A stretch of 64,000 nt of DNA from an uncultured Spirochaetota bacterium (GTDB lineage Bacteria > Spirochaetota > Spirochaetia > SZUA-6 > Fen-1364). The DNA lies in the NCBI GenBank assembly GCA_963745235.1, contig CAVUXE010000037.1, positions 64,001 to 128,000 on the forward strand, written 5' to 3'. A program made the position numbers and the translations under genes. Below, piece after piece: positions 9,283-17,399 of this stretch. A model generated the notes under the pieces. That model was given only the letters and a program-made list of their open reading frames with translations. It ran no database searches and had not been told where the DNA came from. Each line of letters opens with the position of its first letter. Position 1 is the stretch's first letter.

Positions 9283-10799
9283 TCAGCCCTTGGGAAAGAC
9301 GACGGTGAAGGTGGAGCCGGCGTCCGGCTTCGACTGCACGGTGATGCGGCCGTTGTACTCTCCCAGCACGCGCTTCACCGTGGCCAGGCCAAGACCGGTC
9401 CCCGCGATGCCGGACGTCTTGTGGCTCTTCACCCGGTAGAACTCCTGGAAAATGCTGGCGAGCTCCGCCTCGCTCATGCCGATGCCGGTGTCGCTGACGG
9501 CGACCTCCCAGGCGTCGCCTGCATCCGCAATCCGCACCGTGAGGCTGCCCCTCTCCCTGTTGTACTTGATCCCGTTGGAGATGAGGTTCATGAAGATCCG
9601 GTCCAGGTCCCCGCGGTCCGCCTTCACGGGGTAGCCGGCAAGCGGGGCATCCAGGCTCGCGCGGATATGGCGCTTGTCCGCCTGGACCTTGAAGAACTCC
9701 AGCTGGGAGGAGATGACGGCCTTCAGGTCCAGGTCCTCGATGGAGCGCTCCACCTTGCCCACCTCGCGGCTGTTGATGTACAGCAGGTCCCGCACGAGGT
9801 CCAGGAGCGCTTCGCCGCGCACCTTGCAGCGCTCCAGCATCTCCCGGACCTTCGCCGGGTTGTCGTCGAACATCCCCGTGAGGATCACGTTGATGTAGTT
9901 GATGATGGCCGAGAGCGGGCTCTTCAGCTCGTGGGCCACCATGGAGACGAAGCGGTTCTTGTCCTGCTCCGCCTTCCAGCTCTCCGTCACGTCGGTGAGG
10001 ATGACGATGGCCCCCCCGCGCTCCCCGTCCCGCATGAGGGGGGACATGCTCACGGAAAGCATCCCTTCCCAGGCGCCGGTGCGCTGGATGCGGAGGCGCC
10101 GCCCTCTCCCATGGCGTGCTGCAGGACGCGCGTCTCGGGCCTGCCCCCCACGGAGTCCACCACCGCCTCGATGGCGGCCTGGATCTCCAGGTCGGGGAAA
10201 AGGTCCGGCAGCGTGATGCCGTCTCGGAAGTGGGTGCCGAGGAAATGCTCCGCCCGGGGATTCATCAGGACGGGTTCCCTGCGGATGTTGAGGACCACCA
10301 CTCCCTCATGCATGGAGGAGATCATCTGGTGGGACAGGTTGCGCTCGCCGGCAAGCTCCGAGAGGTACTTCTCCCGCTCCCGGATGAGCCGCCACTGCTG
10401 GGCCGCGCGGTTGGCCACCTGCACGAGGTCATCCGGGGTGAACGGCTTGACCAGGAAATCGAATGCGCCGTGCTGGGTCACCTCCACCGCCGCCTCCACG
10501 GTGGCAAGGGCGGAGACGATGACGACCACGGTGCGCCCGGCGAACCTGCGCGTGATGTGCTCCGTGACCTTGAAGCCGTCGATGCCGGGCATCTTCAGGT
10601 CCACGAGGGCAACGTCCGACGGCTCCTCCTCCAGGAGCCGCAGGGCCGTTTCCCCGTCCCGCGCCGTTCGAACGGAAAAGCCGCGGCGCTCCAGGACCCG
10701 CCGCATTCCCTCCCGCATGCCTTCCTCGTCGTCGATGACGAGCACGTGGATGTTTTCCTGAGGTGTCTGCAGTGATGCGGCGGGCCGCGTTTCAGGCAT
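9283..10799 (-). CDS. hybrid sensor kinase REC-PAS-HisKA-HATPase, frameshift near 10060-10100
   Basis: VLVIDDE, DLKMPG, FLVKPF; MHEGVVVLN...MNPRAE (PAS-like); AHELKSPL; NLISNGIKY, DTGIGM, GTGLGL. Confidence 0.88.
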
Positions 10800-11196
10800 T
10801 CTGCTTGCTGCCGGAGAGGTACTGCTCGATCTTGCCCACCAGGTGCTCCAGCGGCACCGGCTTGGTGAGCACCTCGTCCACCTTCATCCACTCGCGACCC
10901 GGAGCTCCGCCGGCCTCGAAGGTGAAGCCGACCTTGCGCGGGGCGGCGGTCTGCATGAGGATGGGGACCTTCCCGAGACCGGGGAGCTCCCGCACCTTCT
11001 TGCAGAACACGAAGCCCGAATCGTAGTGCTCCATCATGAGGTCTGCGATAATCATGTCAGGGGCGGTTGCCTTTGCCTTCTCCAGGCCCTCCTCGACGGT
11101 CAGGGCCGTCTCGATGACGTATCCGTTCTTCTCCAGGAACGCTTTCTGTCCCTCGAGGAGATCTGTGTCATCGTCAACGATCAGTATCCGCGCCAC
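10792..11196 (-). CDS. single-domain response regulator (receiver only)
   Basis: ILIVDDD, ADLMME, LMQTA, LTKPV; no output domain. Confidence 0.9.
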   Translation of the reverse strand: MARILIVDDDTDLLEGQKAFLEKNGYVIETALTVEEGLEKAKATAPDMIIADLMMEHYDSGFVFCKKVRELPGLGKVPILMQTAAPRKVGFTFEAGGAPGREWMKVDEVLTKPVPLEHLVGKIEQYLSGSKQNA

Positions 11197-13279
11197 GTCC
11201 TTCCTCCTTCGTCACTCGGCGGGCCGAACCGGCATGGCGGTGAATGCGCACGGTGAAGCACGCCCCGCCGGTGGGGTTGTTGGCTGCCTGGATGGTCCCT
11301 CCGTGCATCTTCACAATGCCGTAGCAGACCGACAGACCGAGGCCGGTGCCTTTCCCGACCTTCTTCGTGGTGAAAAAGGGCGAGAACATCTTGGGCAGGT
11401 TCTCCTCCGGGATTCCGGGGCCGGTGTCGGAGACAGTGACCACAAACTCTCCGTCCCCGCTCTCCGTGGACACGTGGATCAGCCCCCCGCCGGGCATGGC
11501 CTCCACCGCATTCTTCAACAGGTTGTCGAACACCTGGCGCAGCTGTCCGCCGTCCACCTGCTCCGGCGGAAGCGATGGGTCCAGCGCGAACTCTATCCGG
11601 AATTTCCCGTTTGGTGAAGTTCCCAGGATTTCCCTCGCGGAGCTCTGCACCAGGGCGTTGATATCGGCGGGAGCGCGCTCCACCTTCTCCTCCCGCGCGA
11701 AGTTCAGGATGCCGCGCACGATCGTCGCGTGCGTTCCGCCTCCGCGATGATCCGGTCCAGGTCCTCGCGGCTTTTCGCCGCGGCCCCCGCATCCGCGGCG
11801 CCAGCCCCCACCCCGTCGGGGGCGCCGGCCCCGGCCCTGACGGCGGTGTCGGCCCCGGCATTCGCGTCCTCAAGCTCATCCTTCAGCAGGTGGGAGTACA
11901 TGAGCACGACGCCCAGGGGGTTGTTGATCTCGTGCGCGATCCCCGCCGCCATCTGGCCCATGGAGGCCAGCTTCTCCGCCTGGATCAGCCGGGCCTGGTT
12001 TTCCGTGAGGTCCTTCATGGCCTTCTCGATGCGGGAGATCAGGTACGGCAGGCACATCTCCACCTCGGCCTTGCCGCGATACACGGCCTCCGCCTTCTGC
12101 CGGCAGGAGGGATAGCCGCAGGCGCCGCAGTTCAGCTCGTCCGCGGGGGTGTTCTTCCCCGTGAGGGCCAGGATCCGGCGGATCTCCTCTTCGGGGGCCG
12201 GCAGCTCTTCCCGCATGACCGGGTGGAATGTCTTCGCAAGGTCCATGTCCAGGTAGTCCGCGTGCTGGGCGGCCCACTCCTCGACGTCCCGCGTGCACGG
12301 CCTGTCCTGCAGGTAGCGACGACGTACTTCTTTCTCTCGAAGAAGGTGAGGTCGTTCACCATGACCGGCCCGCCGATGCATCCCTCGCAGAAAAGAAGGT
12401 CGAACAGGCGATACGTGGTGCCTTCTCCGCTCTTCACGCGGTCCGAGAGCACGCGCAGGATCTCCATCACCCGGTCCTGGCCTTCCACGACATAGACGGG
12501 ACTTTCCAGGAGGTCGTCGTCAATGGCGGCGGCCTTCAGGAGCCCGCCCGTCACCGGGTAGATCCGGCCGAGGTTCGCGTGAGGGGGGAGAAAGTCGACG
12601 GGGGCCGCTGACCGCGGATCGATTGCGGAATCAGCGAACAGCTCGACCAGCTCGGAGAAGGTGAGGACGGCGTCCACCTCTCCCGAGCGCCACGCCTCCA
12701 CTTTCTTGGCCACGCAGGGACCGATGAAGACAACTTTCGCCTCCGGGTCGATCTTCTGCCGGACCAGGCGCGCCGTGGCCTCCATGGGAGACACGATGGC
12801 CGCCAGGTGCGGCGTCAGCTCGGGGAGCATCTTCTCCACGTACTGCACCACCGCGGGGCAGGGAGTGGAGATGAGGAAGTCCTCTGGATTCTTCTCCAAC
12901 AGCTCGTGGAAGGTCTTGAAGTACCGGTAGGAGACGAGGTCGGCGCCGAAGGCGACCTCGAAGACGCCGTCGAACCCCGCTTCCTGCAGGGCCCCGACGA
13001 GGCGCCCGGGGGGAGGTTCAGGAAAGCGGCGGGGAACGAGGGGGCAAGGAGCGCGTACTTTTTTCCCGGACCTCCCAGGATGGCTTTCACGCCGCCGAGG
13101 GAAGAGGTGACGCGCTTGGCCCCCTGGGAGCAGACATTCACGCAATAGCCGCAGGAGATGCAGAAGTCCTCTATGATCTCCGCCTGCCCCCCGCGGACCT
13201 GCAGCGCCTTGGTGGGGCAGGAACGGACGCAGGAGTAGCACTTCTTGCAGATCTCTCCGACCGTATAGACCGATACCAT
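11174..13279 (-). CDS. sensory (group C1-type) [FeFe]-hydrogenase fused to a histidine kinase; frameshifts near 13010, 12320 and 11725
   Basis: N-terminal 2x[4Fe-4S] ([23 protein letters not shown]); H-cluster motifs [25 protein letters not shown]; FeS domain [10 protein letters not shown]...[36 protein letters not shown]. Confidence 0.88.
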
Positions 13280-13286
13280 GGTTCCC

Positions 13287-16850: not shown

Positions 16851-17338
16851 TCCTCGACCCTCCCCGCAGCGCGGAACTTTTCAACGAGCGCCTCGAGCTT
16901 CTTCTTGTCCAGCCTTCCAAAGAACTTCCCGTTCGCCATGATGACGGGGGCAATGGAGCAGCAGCCGAGGCACGCCACCGTCTCCAGGGAAAAAAGGCCG
17001 TCCTTCGTCGTCTGCCCCACGTCGATCCCGAGCAGCGTCTTCACGGAGTCAAGGAGGTTGAGCGAGCCTTTCACGTGACAGGCCGTCCCTCTGCACACGG
17101 AAATCTGGATGCTGCCCGGCGCGTTCAGGCGAAACTGGTTGTAGAAGGTGGCTACACCAAAGATCTTCGAGGAGGGAAGGCCAAGGTAACCCGAGATCCT
17201 GTCAATGCTTTCCCGTGACAGGTAACCGTACTCCTCCTGCACTTCCTGGAGGATGGAGATGAGGTGCTCTCTCTGGGCGGGATATTTGGACATCACCTCG
17301 TCAAAGCTTCTTTTCTTCTGGGTTGTTTCCATGACCAC
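16847..17338 (-). CDS. hydC: NuoE-like 2Fe-2S subunit of a bifurcating hydrogenase
   Basis: GVATFYNQF, VCRGTACHVKG, VACLGCCSIAP. Confidence 0.94.
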   Translation of the reverse strand: MVMETTQKKRSFDEVMSKYPAQREHLISILQEVQEEYGYLSRESIDRISGYLGLPSSKIFGVATFYNQFRLNAPGSIQISVCRGTACHVKGSLNLLDSVKTLLGIDVGQTTKDGLFSLETVACLGCCSIAPVIMANGKFFGRLDKKKLEALVEKFRAAGRVEE

Positions 17339-17381
17339 TCCTTCGATCTCCCGTTCGCAGCAATGCCGACGCAGGTCTATA

Positions 17382-17399
17382 TTGTGAATCTATTCACTA
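17382..17399. promoter_or_regulatory. Rex operator upstream of hydCBA
   Basis: TTGTGAATCTATTCACTA versus consensus TTGTGAA-N4-TTCACAA (1 mismatch). A weaker candidate TCGTGAAGGAAATGTCAA lies at 17415-17432. Confidence 0.8.

Follow-up and report, generated by a model that had tools for sequence, protein, structure and literature searches.

A histidine kinase-fused group C-type [FeFe] hydrogenase homolog and a conserved signaling cassette behind a HydABC-type operon of an uncultured spirochaete

A 64,000-nucleotide stretch of DNA from an uncultured Spirochaetota bacterium (positions 64,001 to 128,000 of contig CAVUXE010000037.1, assembly GCA_963745235.1; hereafter the window) carries the genes hydC, hydB, and hydA of a HydABC-type hydrogenase and, directly behind them, a gene in which an [FeFe] hydrogenase domain (H-domain) is fused to a histidine kinase, followed by a stand-alone receiver (REC), a hybrid kinase with its own N-terminal receiver, and an MFS transporter (Table 1). 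The order, coordinates, and spacings of these genes had been proposed in a first-pass annotation of the window and are confirmed on the minus strand by Pfam searches and by the positions of the open reading frames (ORFs). The reading that we favor, with moderate confidence, is that of one high-GC spirochaete operon in which an NADH- and ferredoxin-linked HydABC hydrogenase is joined to a subgroup C1 sensor kinase and a two-kinase cascade, with repression by Rex being probable. The earlier description of a histidine kinase-fused, group C-type [FeFe] hydrogenase homolog behind a HydABC-type operon is likewise borne out; HydDB lists such proteins as C1, for which the available part of the source gives a “putative, undetermined role” (PMC5037454). 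Our assignment of the sensor module to this subgroup is drawn from its domains and its motifs, with indirect evidence from its identity to the PAS-linked relative P0168. Proteins of HydDB group C1 likewise combine an H-domain with a linked histidine kinase, are often encoded beside A3 HydABC genes, and are presumed to sense H2, and no difference sets the window gene apart from that group.

The hydrogenase and kinase parts of the sensor can be compared with the intact orthologs P0001 and P0002 (677 and 684 residues; H-domains 99% identical), each of which is a single protein. In 77 of 80 related loci, the fusion is encoded by a single ORF with a length of ≥550 residues. The first-pass annotation had allowed that the two parts might prove to be separate genes, and this fails because the close intact orthologs are single genes. 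A search for the H-domain among longer proteins gave 1401 matches at E ≤ 0.001 among 3070 candidates; PF02906, PF04060, and PF00512 are present in all 120 matches listed and HATPase_c in all but one (P0079), and the closest relatives among the matches listed are labeled Spirochaetia.

All three active-site motifs of the sensor deviate from those of HydA. In an alignment of the window HydA with the HydA and sensor proteins of 12 loci, of which three with wrong-frame ORFs were disregarded, motif L1 reads TSCCP in HydA and STPCP in the sensor, L2 reads MPCTAKKFE and GPCVAKKVE, and L3 reads CPGGC and FCEGC. The sensor thus retains the four H-cluster cysteines together with the lysine and the glutamate that align with K358 and E361 of CpI; the proton-relay residue Cys299 is replaced by proline, Met353 is replaced by glycine, and L3 is one residue shorter between its cysteines (CxxC versus CxxxC). 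Among 77 intact sensor ORFs from ~20 phyla (numbered as in P0002), residues C141, C189, K192, E195, C298, C301, C385, C388, C393, and C410 are each the top residue in 95% of the sequences, the cysteines of the N-terminal clusters in 90–91%, and the phospho-accepting H450 in 99%. Cysteines C11, C14, C17, C21, C40, C43, C46, C50, C385, C388, C393, and C410 are invariant among 33 sequences, and the last four form an exact Cx2Cx4Cx16C motif in P0002. The most conserved stretch of the sensor comprises this FeS motif and helix 1 of the DHp domain, with a mean top-residue frequency of 0.75–0.78 versus 0.56–0.67 elsewhere; DHp helix 1 is nearly invariant among the 77 ORFs.

These features are reminiscent of the slow sensory hydrogenase HydS of Thermotoga maritima (TmHydS). 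In the available text of the source, the marks of groups C and D are the loss of C299, the exchange of M353 for Gly in TmHydS, two N-terminal clusters, and a C-terminal Cx2Cx4Cx16C motif (PMC8163306, Land et al.). TmHydS and the window sensor share 2x[4Fe-4S], an H-domain without C299, the Met353-to-Gly exchange, the C-terminal Cx2Cx4Cx16C motif, and a position beside a bifurcating hydrogenase, as far as the accessible parts of PMC10055695 and PMC8163306 describe TmHydS. This likeness is drawn from published features; the measured identity, 43% over sensor residues 1–435, is to P0168, a PAS-linked relative from a metagenome-assembled genome (MAG) of Bacillota that has the same variant motifs. 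In TmHydS the C-terminal cluster is followed by a PAS domain, whereas the window sensor goes straight into a DHp/CA kinase and has proline at position 299. The point of divergence can be placed from P0168, in which the two architectures split directly after the sequence MCLPYLI, with PAS following in P0168 and the kinase following in the family of the window sensor. In P0156, another sensor relative, HisKA_3 (PF07730) replaces HisKA after the FeS domain, and the class of kinase fused to the sensor module therefore varies.

An AlphaFold2 model of P0002, with a predicted local distance difference test score of 77.5, resembles both HydA structures (8a6t_A, E = 2.3e-19) and kinase cytoplasmic domains (ZraS, 9jfj_A). 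The ~40 residues that separate C410 from H450 are helices in this model. None of the solved structures matched in the structure search belongs to a group C enzyme.

With one genome taken per species, at least 582 genomes encode a relative of the sensor (out of 600 pattern matches), and the 80 best loci come from MAGs of ~20 phylum-level groups, including Spirochaetota, Planctomycetota, Acidobacteriota, Bacteroidales, and Hydrogenedentota as well as Myxococcota, Verrucomicrobiota, Fibrobacterota, Melainabacteria, and Clostridia. Synteny was scored by tblastn of the window proteins against these 80 loci at ≥50% query coverage, with loci that have enough flank as denominators. All related loci are MAGs, and their taxon labels and contig ends bound the counts; genes in the loci were called as the longest ORFs, presence or absence was set by the tblastn thresholds, and the sensor matches are irregular in L033, L055, and L061. 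In 56 of 68 loci hydA ends ≤1 kb before the sensor, and in 44 of 55 all of hydC, hydB, and hydA are upstream of it. A lone receiver stands at the end of the sensor in 62 of 76 loci. A HisKA-HATPase gene follows ≤1.7 kb downstream of the sensor in 65 of 66, and that gene also has an N-terminal receiver in 58 of 66. The sensor-REC-hybrid cassette, which had been noticed in the window alone, is thus conserved, and the whole set hydCBA-sensor-REC-REC/kinase is found in 37 of 45 loci.

The cassette has some variants. In ~8 loci the lone receiver is encoded after hydA and ahead of the sensor, and in several others it is absent and the hybrid directly follows the sensor. An MFS gene after the hybrid is present in L001 and L002 only, the closest spirochaete loci. 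The genes downstream of the cassette were clustered as ORFs, and representatives were scored with NCBIfam. Radical-SAM HydE/HydG genes are downstream in 27 loci, and of the six representatives tested five proved to be HydG and one HydE; HydF is downstream in 16 (2/2 representatives tested). The maturase genes hydE, hydG, and hydF thus come after the cassette in other phyla, and none of the three is present in the 64-kb window. In 10 loci, including L064-L066, a gene of the aspartate ammonia-lyase/fumarase family (~470 residues) lies between hydG and hydF; NF008909 scored above its cutoff in 3/3 tested. The number of stand-alone receivers also varies (L012, L054, and L072; L051, L066, L068, L071, L076, and L080), some of these loci having a tandem pair behind the sensor and others an additional receiver of 123–155 residues behind the hybrid.

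The enzyme encoded upstream of the sensor has the subunits expected of an electron-bifurcating HydABC (HydDB A3), with a NuoF-like HydB that has a flavin mononucleotide (FMN)/NADH site and extra clusters and a NuoE-like HydC. Its HydA has canonical motifs (TSCCPAW, MPCTAKKFE, and MACPGGCAGGGGQ) and N-terminal 2Fe-2S and 4Fe-4S domains. Against NF040763, “NADH-dependent [FeFe] hydrogenase, group A6”, HydA scores 749.4 bits, with a cutoff of 765, from a frameshift-shortened ORF that spans profile positions 1–511 of 571. The start of hydA is likely the ATG near 15015, and after the frameshift its C-terminus runs on in another frame to ~13290. HydB (nuoF_fam, E = 3.4e-130) is 85–93% identical to its L002 and L001 counterparts, and HydC, in a single frame, is 82% identical to its L002 ortholog. 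Motif L1 of HydA is TSCCPAW in the window, L002, and L003 and TSCSPGW in the non-spirochaete loci L012, L013, L016, L024, L041, L062, L065, and L072; TSCSPGW-type variation in L1 was noted earlier for Melainabacteria (PMC3787301).

The genes of the unit are tightly packed. A gap of 7 nt separates hydA from the sensor, the sensor overlaps the lone receiver gene by 23 nt, this gene overlaps the hybrid by 8 nt, and the hybrid stop codon is 4 nt from the MFS start. No terminator-like site was found within the unit on the minus strand, and an Rfam scan of the whole window gave zero matches.

Both receivers and both kinases have conserved catalytic residues. The lone receiver keeps an acidic pocket (DDD), the phospho-acceptor Asp (D..D+MM), and the Lys across 59 family members, and the hybrid kinase retains its N, G1, and G2 boxes, so that the ATP-binding boxes of both kinases are complete. 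The hybrid had been described as REC-PAS-HisKA-HATPase; REC, HisKA, and HATPase_c are found, and PAS is not detected at E ≤ 1e-3 in the frameshift-broken window copy, although the intact L002 ortholog (514 residues) has PAS_4 (E = 1.9e-5). Hybrids of most other phyla are ~380 residues long and without PAS. Taken strictly, the phosphorelay of the first-pass annotation lacks support, as no Hpt or Spo0B-like domain was matched in the proteins of the unit or in orthologous hybrids. The lack of an Hpt domain and the retention of ATP-binding boxes in both kinases fit a two-kinase cascade better than a His-Asp-His-Asp relay.

Family matching gives an indication of the order of events. The sensor transmitter scores highest with the models of AtoS (E = 2.9e-56) and ZraS, both of them kinases for regulators of the NtrC family. 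The hybrid REC has AtoC, NtrC, or LuxO as its top match in 5/5 tested, with AtoC and NtrC on top for the window copy, and the transmitter of the hybrid is PnpS/PhoR/WalK-like. An AtoS/ZraS-like sensor, an NtrC-like hybrid REC, a PnpS/PhoR/WalK-like hybrid transmitter, and a lone receiver of unclear family together favor an order from the sensor to the hybrid REC, on to the hybrid kinase, and from there to the lone receiver and/or an unlinked regulator. The wiring proposed here is analogous to that of the Che3 system of Rhodospirillum centenum, for which the accessible part of the source reports experiments showing that CheA3 phosphorylates the receiver of CheS3 and that only CheS3 phosphorylates the single-domain CheY3 (PMC3868531). 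The analogy of kinase to REC-kinase to single receiver extends to the wiring only; Che3 has chemoreceptor input and a CheA-class kinase, whereas the window has hydrogenase-domain input and kinases of the HisKA class.

Upstream of hydC, the palindrome at 17382–17399 reads TTGTGAATCTATTCACTA, with one mismatch to the Rex consensus TTGTGAANNNNTTCACAA (taken from the available text of PMC5317091 and PMC6391272), and it is the sole match at ≤3 mismatches in 64 kb. About half of shuffled windows give at least one such match by chance, and the position of the site and its conservation in relatives therefore weigh most. The related loci (1.3 Mb) contain 35 Rex sites at ≤2 mismatches, of which 30, spread over 25 of 49 loci, are no more than 800 bp upstream of hydC. 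Where a site is found at about −700, the gene behind it was identified as Rex by NCBIfam in 6/6 tested. Of the 80 loci, 39 have a rex gene, which in most cases immediately precedes hydC and in Bacteroidales comes immediately after the hybrid kinase. These observations are consistent with the notion that the hyd operon of the window is probably repressed by Rex. The site may overlap a −10-like hexamer, TATAGT. A Rex-controlled rex-hydABC cluster is described for Caldithrix abyssi (Cabys_3675-3679; PMC5317091), and there too a Rex box precedes a HydABC-type cluster; the window differs in having the operator and no rex gene in its 64 kb, and the published account, in the part available, is silent on a kinase cassette.

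A second design is found in some relatives. A divergent regulator of the REC-sigma54 AAA-HTH_8 (NtrC) type is encoded in L012, L016, and L020, with one nearby in L004 and L073, and a −24/−12 element (≤1 mismatch) lies ~50–200 bp upstream of hydC in L012, L016, L019, and L020. These four elements are among 27 such sites in 1.3 Mb, and it is these four loci that are without rex and Rex boxes. A FixJ-type regulator precedes hydC in L072. In some relatives, then, the most likely final target would be the neighboring sigma-54 activator of the NtrC type, acting on this very operon, and in L012, L016, and L020 activator and promoter would form a plausible feedback circuit back to the hydrogenase genes. 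The claim that the system has no DNA-binding output can accordingly be kept in part: no gene within 8048–17338 encodes a DNA-binding domain, but the phrase is misleading, as a candidate Rex operator precedes hydC and relatives carry rex or an NtrC-type activator.

HoxA is an NtrC-type regulator, and the NtrC-type regulators and sigma-54 promoters of L012, L016, and L020 mirror it. The likeness to the [NiFe] regulatory hydrogenase-HoxJ/HupT-HoxA/HupR system (HydDB 2b; outlined in the available part of PMC5037454) is one of outline, in that a slow hydrogenase reports H2 to a kinase controlling hydrogenase genes. The metal site and the protein family are unrelated; in the window, sensor and kinase are one polypeptide, there are two extra signaling proteins, and no regulator gene is present.

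On the basis of the gene content, the fusion, the motif conservation, the synteny, and the operator sequence established here, we infer a dependence on H2, a direction of phosphate flow, and an output. Rex would keep the operon off until NADH rises. H2 at the crippled H-cluster of the sensor would set the redox state of the accessory clusters, and the state of the C-terminal Cx2Cx4Cx16C cluster could be passed through the ~40 mostly helical residues to the phospho-accepting histidine, where the signal would shift the balance of kinase and phosphatase activity. Judging from family matching, the AtoS/ZraS-like transmitter of the sensor may phosphorylate the N-terminal, NtrC-like receiver of the hybrid kinase; this receiver would gate the PhoR/WalK-like transmitter, which could act on the lone receiver and/or an unlinked regulator. 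A bolder version, which we consider unlikely, is that sensor kinase, REC-kinase, and lone receiver form a conserved H2-responsive module without a transcription factor, in which the phosphorylated lone receiver would contact HydABC, Rex, or another metabolic switch. If this were true, an H2 product signal at the sensor and an NADH substrate signal at Rex would jointly decide when confurcating H2 production pays thermodynamically, and the kinase-fused form would be the first [FeFe] sensory hydrogenase with a signaling step that can be assayed in vitro.

Several observations weigh against the operon model just described. The authors of a study of Hydrogenedentota hardly found H-cluster motifs in the C1 proteins of that group and doubt H2 sensing, according to the available part of their paper (PMC11406978), and the open literature yielded no experiment on H2 sensing by any C1 protein. 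L3 of the sensor has 2, not 3, residues between its cysteines, and binding of the [2Fe] subcluster is a prediction only. The confidence of the AlphaFold2 model is low precisely in the linker, residues 425–444. A lone receiver is missing after the sensor in 14 of 76 loci, being either placed between hydA and the sensor or absent. Its family assignment is mixed (PhoB, GlrR, ActR, and DivK-like), so that the pairing of lone receiver and hybrid rests on little, and family likeness is in any case a weak guide to kinase-receiver specificity. A sigma-54 promoter is absent near hydC of the window, which has 15 loose matches versus 25 expected and zero near 17339–17522. No orphan DNA-binding regulator is present in the 64 kb, the regulators at 33033–33710 and 50818–51513 adjoining their own kinases. 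Finally, the sensor copy of the window is itself frameshifted.

Compared with P0002 at the protein level and with loci L001 and L002, the unit has six frame changes in 9.3 kb: one in hydA, three in the sensor, one in the hybrid, and one in the MFS gene. The sensor gene has three single-base deletions, near 13010, 12315, and 11725, the first of which sits in a C6 run where C7 is needed; hydA has one extra base near 13468–13514, the hybrid is frameshifted near 10065–10083, and the MFS gene near 9148. The reading frames of hydB, hydC, and the lone receiver are unbroken. Outside the unit, breaks are found in CobT (6217–7014, profile positions 2–210 of 329), chorismate synthase (two pieces, 1818–3396), KdpD (two pieces, 30969–33036), and an ABC ATPase (56135–57493, ABC_tran 1–79 of 137), and single-base errors therefore seem to be spread over the whole window. 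The frameshifts are probably consensus errors of an unpolished assembly and not decay, because the sensor pieces stay 87–97% identical to intact P0002 with zero internal stops and because genes elsewhere in the window are similarly split. In the hairpin loop of the sensor DHp domain (~11760–11860, minus strand), an Ala/Gly-rich insertion of ~18 residues sets the window copy apart from P0002, P0001, L001, and L002, and no tandem repeat that could be its source was detected in the DNA.

That the frameshifts are real, and that sensor, hydA, hybrid, and MFS genes are pseudogenes of a cassette decaying in this strain, is a reading to which we give very little weight. The concentration of breaks in the unit, with three inside the 2.1 kb of the sensor gene and none in hydB or hydC, could be taken in its favor, yet the changes are single-base indels, the pieces have kept their identity to P0002 without internal stops, and the splitting of genes elsewhere in the window fits unpolished-assembly errors. 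A more substantial question, although we doubt that it is to be answered in the affirmative, is whether the fusion is a cytoplasmic FeS redox sensor for the ferredoxin pool or a general reductant and not for H2, its H-domain being a scaffold with only a [4Fe-4S] cluster or nothing while the kinase reads the FeS clusters. Four predicted FeS sites flank the H-domain, the spacing of L3 is atypical, the proton-relay cysteine is lost, and the scarcity of canonical H-cluster motifs in C1 proteins, as reported in the accessible text of PMC11406978, points the same way. These losses have to be set against the retention of the four H-cluster cysteines, the lysine, and the glutamate as top residues in ~20 phyla, and against a gene order, seen in many loci, in which hydA precedes the sensor gene and the maturase genes hydE, hydG, and hydF come after it. 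P0168, moreover, combines the same variant motifs with the architecture of TmHydS, and TmHydS binds an H-cluster, as described in the available parts of PMC10055695 and PMC8163306.

As a true relay, the phosphorelay of the first-pass annotation would run from the sensor to the lone receiver and then to the histidine of the hybrid, which would play the part of a Spo0B-like transferase and hand the phosphate to a distal receiver. The order of sensor, receiver, and hybrid with overlapping frames suits such a path, as does a lone receiver that retains its phospho-acceptor residues and whose family assignment is open. We nevertheless judge this relay improbable, since an Hpt domain was not found, the N, G1, and G2 boxes of the hybrid are typical of a kinase that uses ATP, the NtrC-like N-terminal receiver of the hybrid fits an AtoS/ZraS-like sensor, and the hybrid follows the sensor without an intervening lone receiver in at least 8 loci. 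Alternatively, the fusion could be an accessory subunit of HydABC, similar to the group C3 subunit “BfuT” suggested for certain bifurcating hydrogenases, with the cascade acting post-translationally on the enzyme or on metabolism and not on transcription. The available text of PMC11406978 does treat the C3 protein as subunit T, the linkage to hydA is tight, both in the 7-nt gap seen here and across the related loci, most cassettes encode no transcription factor, and the lone receiver has no output domain. The NtrC-type activators and sigma-54 promoters of some lineages suggest a transcriptional output instead, and 12 of 68 loci have no hydA directly upstream of the sensor, which leaves the subunit explanation quite improbable in our estimation.

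Some of this arrangement has been seen before. In Hydrogenedentota, 21 of 53 C1 genes adjoin A3 genes (available part of PMC11406978), and two genome papers mention C1 beside a kinase in their accessible text (PMC6163223, PMC8542988). What is new beyond the known C1 class is the partner set of lone receiver and REC-kinase, the conserved placement after hydA and before hydEGF, and the association with rex; searches of the open full-text literature, which leaves subscription papers outside its coverage, gave no description of any of the three and no biochemical work on an [FeFe] hydrogenase fused to a kinase. The survey also adds H-cluster motifs that are altered but conserved, a junction common with PAS-type HydS, and two alternative transcriptional designs.

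TmHydS and TamHydS, the sensory [FeFe] hydrogenases that have been studied, have either a PAS domain or no further domain at the C-terminus, and to our knowledge their downstream partners are unproven. How [FeFe] sensory hydrogenases transmit their signal is an open question, and a kinase fusion offers a direct readout by autophosphorylation, with two candidate substrates, the lone receiver and the hybrid REC, encoded beside the sensor in most genomes. The cassette occurs in anaerobes of ~20 phyla beside the enzyme that governs the release of H2 in fermentation; it may be a common means of adjustment to H2 partial pressure in syntrophic communities, and it could serve as a genetically encoded H2 sensor. 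The window by itself is ordinary, being another error-ridden copy of a common cassette.

Table 1. Genes of the hyd/sensor unit and the candidate operator in the window (G+C ~64%)
Feature	Position	Strand	Description
Candidate Rex-type operator	17382-17399		palindrome TTGTGAA-N4-TTCAC.A, 44 bp upstream of hydC start codon
hydC	16847-17338	-	NuoE-like [2Fe-2S] subunit, 163 aa, intact; PF01257 2Fe-2S_thioredx, E 2.8e-49; NCBIfam NuoE/HoxE models
hydB	15027-16850	-	NuoF-like FMN/NADH subunit, 607 aa, intact; Complex1_51K, SLBB, NADH_4Fe-4S, C-terminal 2xFer4
hydA	~13287-15057	-	catalytic [FeFe] hydrogenase; Pfam-scored ORF 13456-15057; Fer2_4, NADH-G_4Fe-4S_3, 2xFer4, Fe_hyd_lg_C, E 1.4e-94
Sensor hydrogenase-kinase fusion	11174-13279	-	2x[4Fe-4S] (2xFer4), Fe_hyd_lg_C, E 8.2e-45, PF04060 Cx2Cx4Cx16C, HisKA, HATPase_c; four frame pieces
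Stand-alone receiver REC134	10792-11196	-	134 aa, intact; Response_reg, E 5.6e-16
Hybrid kinase REC-(PAS)-HisKA-HATPase_c	9283-10799	-	REC ORF 10050-10799, E 7.2e-30; HisKA-HATPase_c ORF 9283-10062
MFS transporter	8048-9278	-	last gene of the co-oriented run; MFS_1, E 2.5e-50 on ORF 8048-9136

Divergent from hydC, a partner-switching-type block occupies 17523–22884 on the plus strand and encodes a dCache-HAMP protein (449 residues, its stop codon overlapping the next start), a membrane-GAF-PP2C/SpoIIE protein (637 residues), a STAS protein (134 residues), an RsbW-like HATPase_c_2 protein (182 residues), and a 387-residue protein without a Pfam or NCBIfam match. The existence of a “phosphatase-linked” group C3 prompted us to consider the dCache-HAMP, GAF-PP2C, STAS, and RsbW-like neighbors (17523–21711) as the missing output. 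They were rejected as members of the unit because they are missing at the same place in L002, where an adenylate-cyclase gene adjoins the region upstream of hydC, and because a weak Cache-HAMP match occurs in just 1 of 80 loci. Farther along the plus strand, at 25913–33710, lies a potassium-uptake cluster of kdpA, kdpB, (kdpC), and kdpD/kdpE, in which kdpD is split by a frameshift and which has no relation to the hyd unit.

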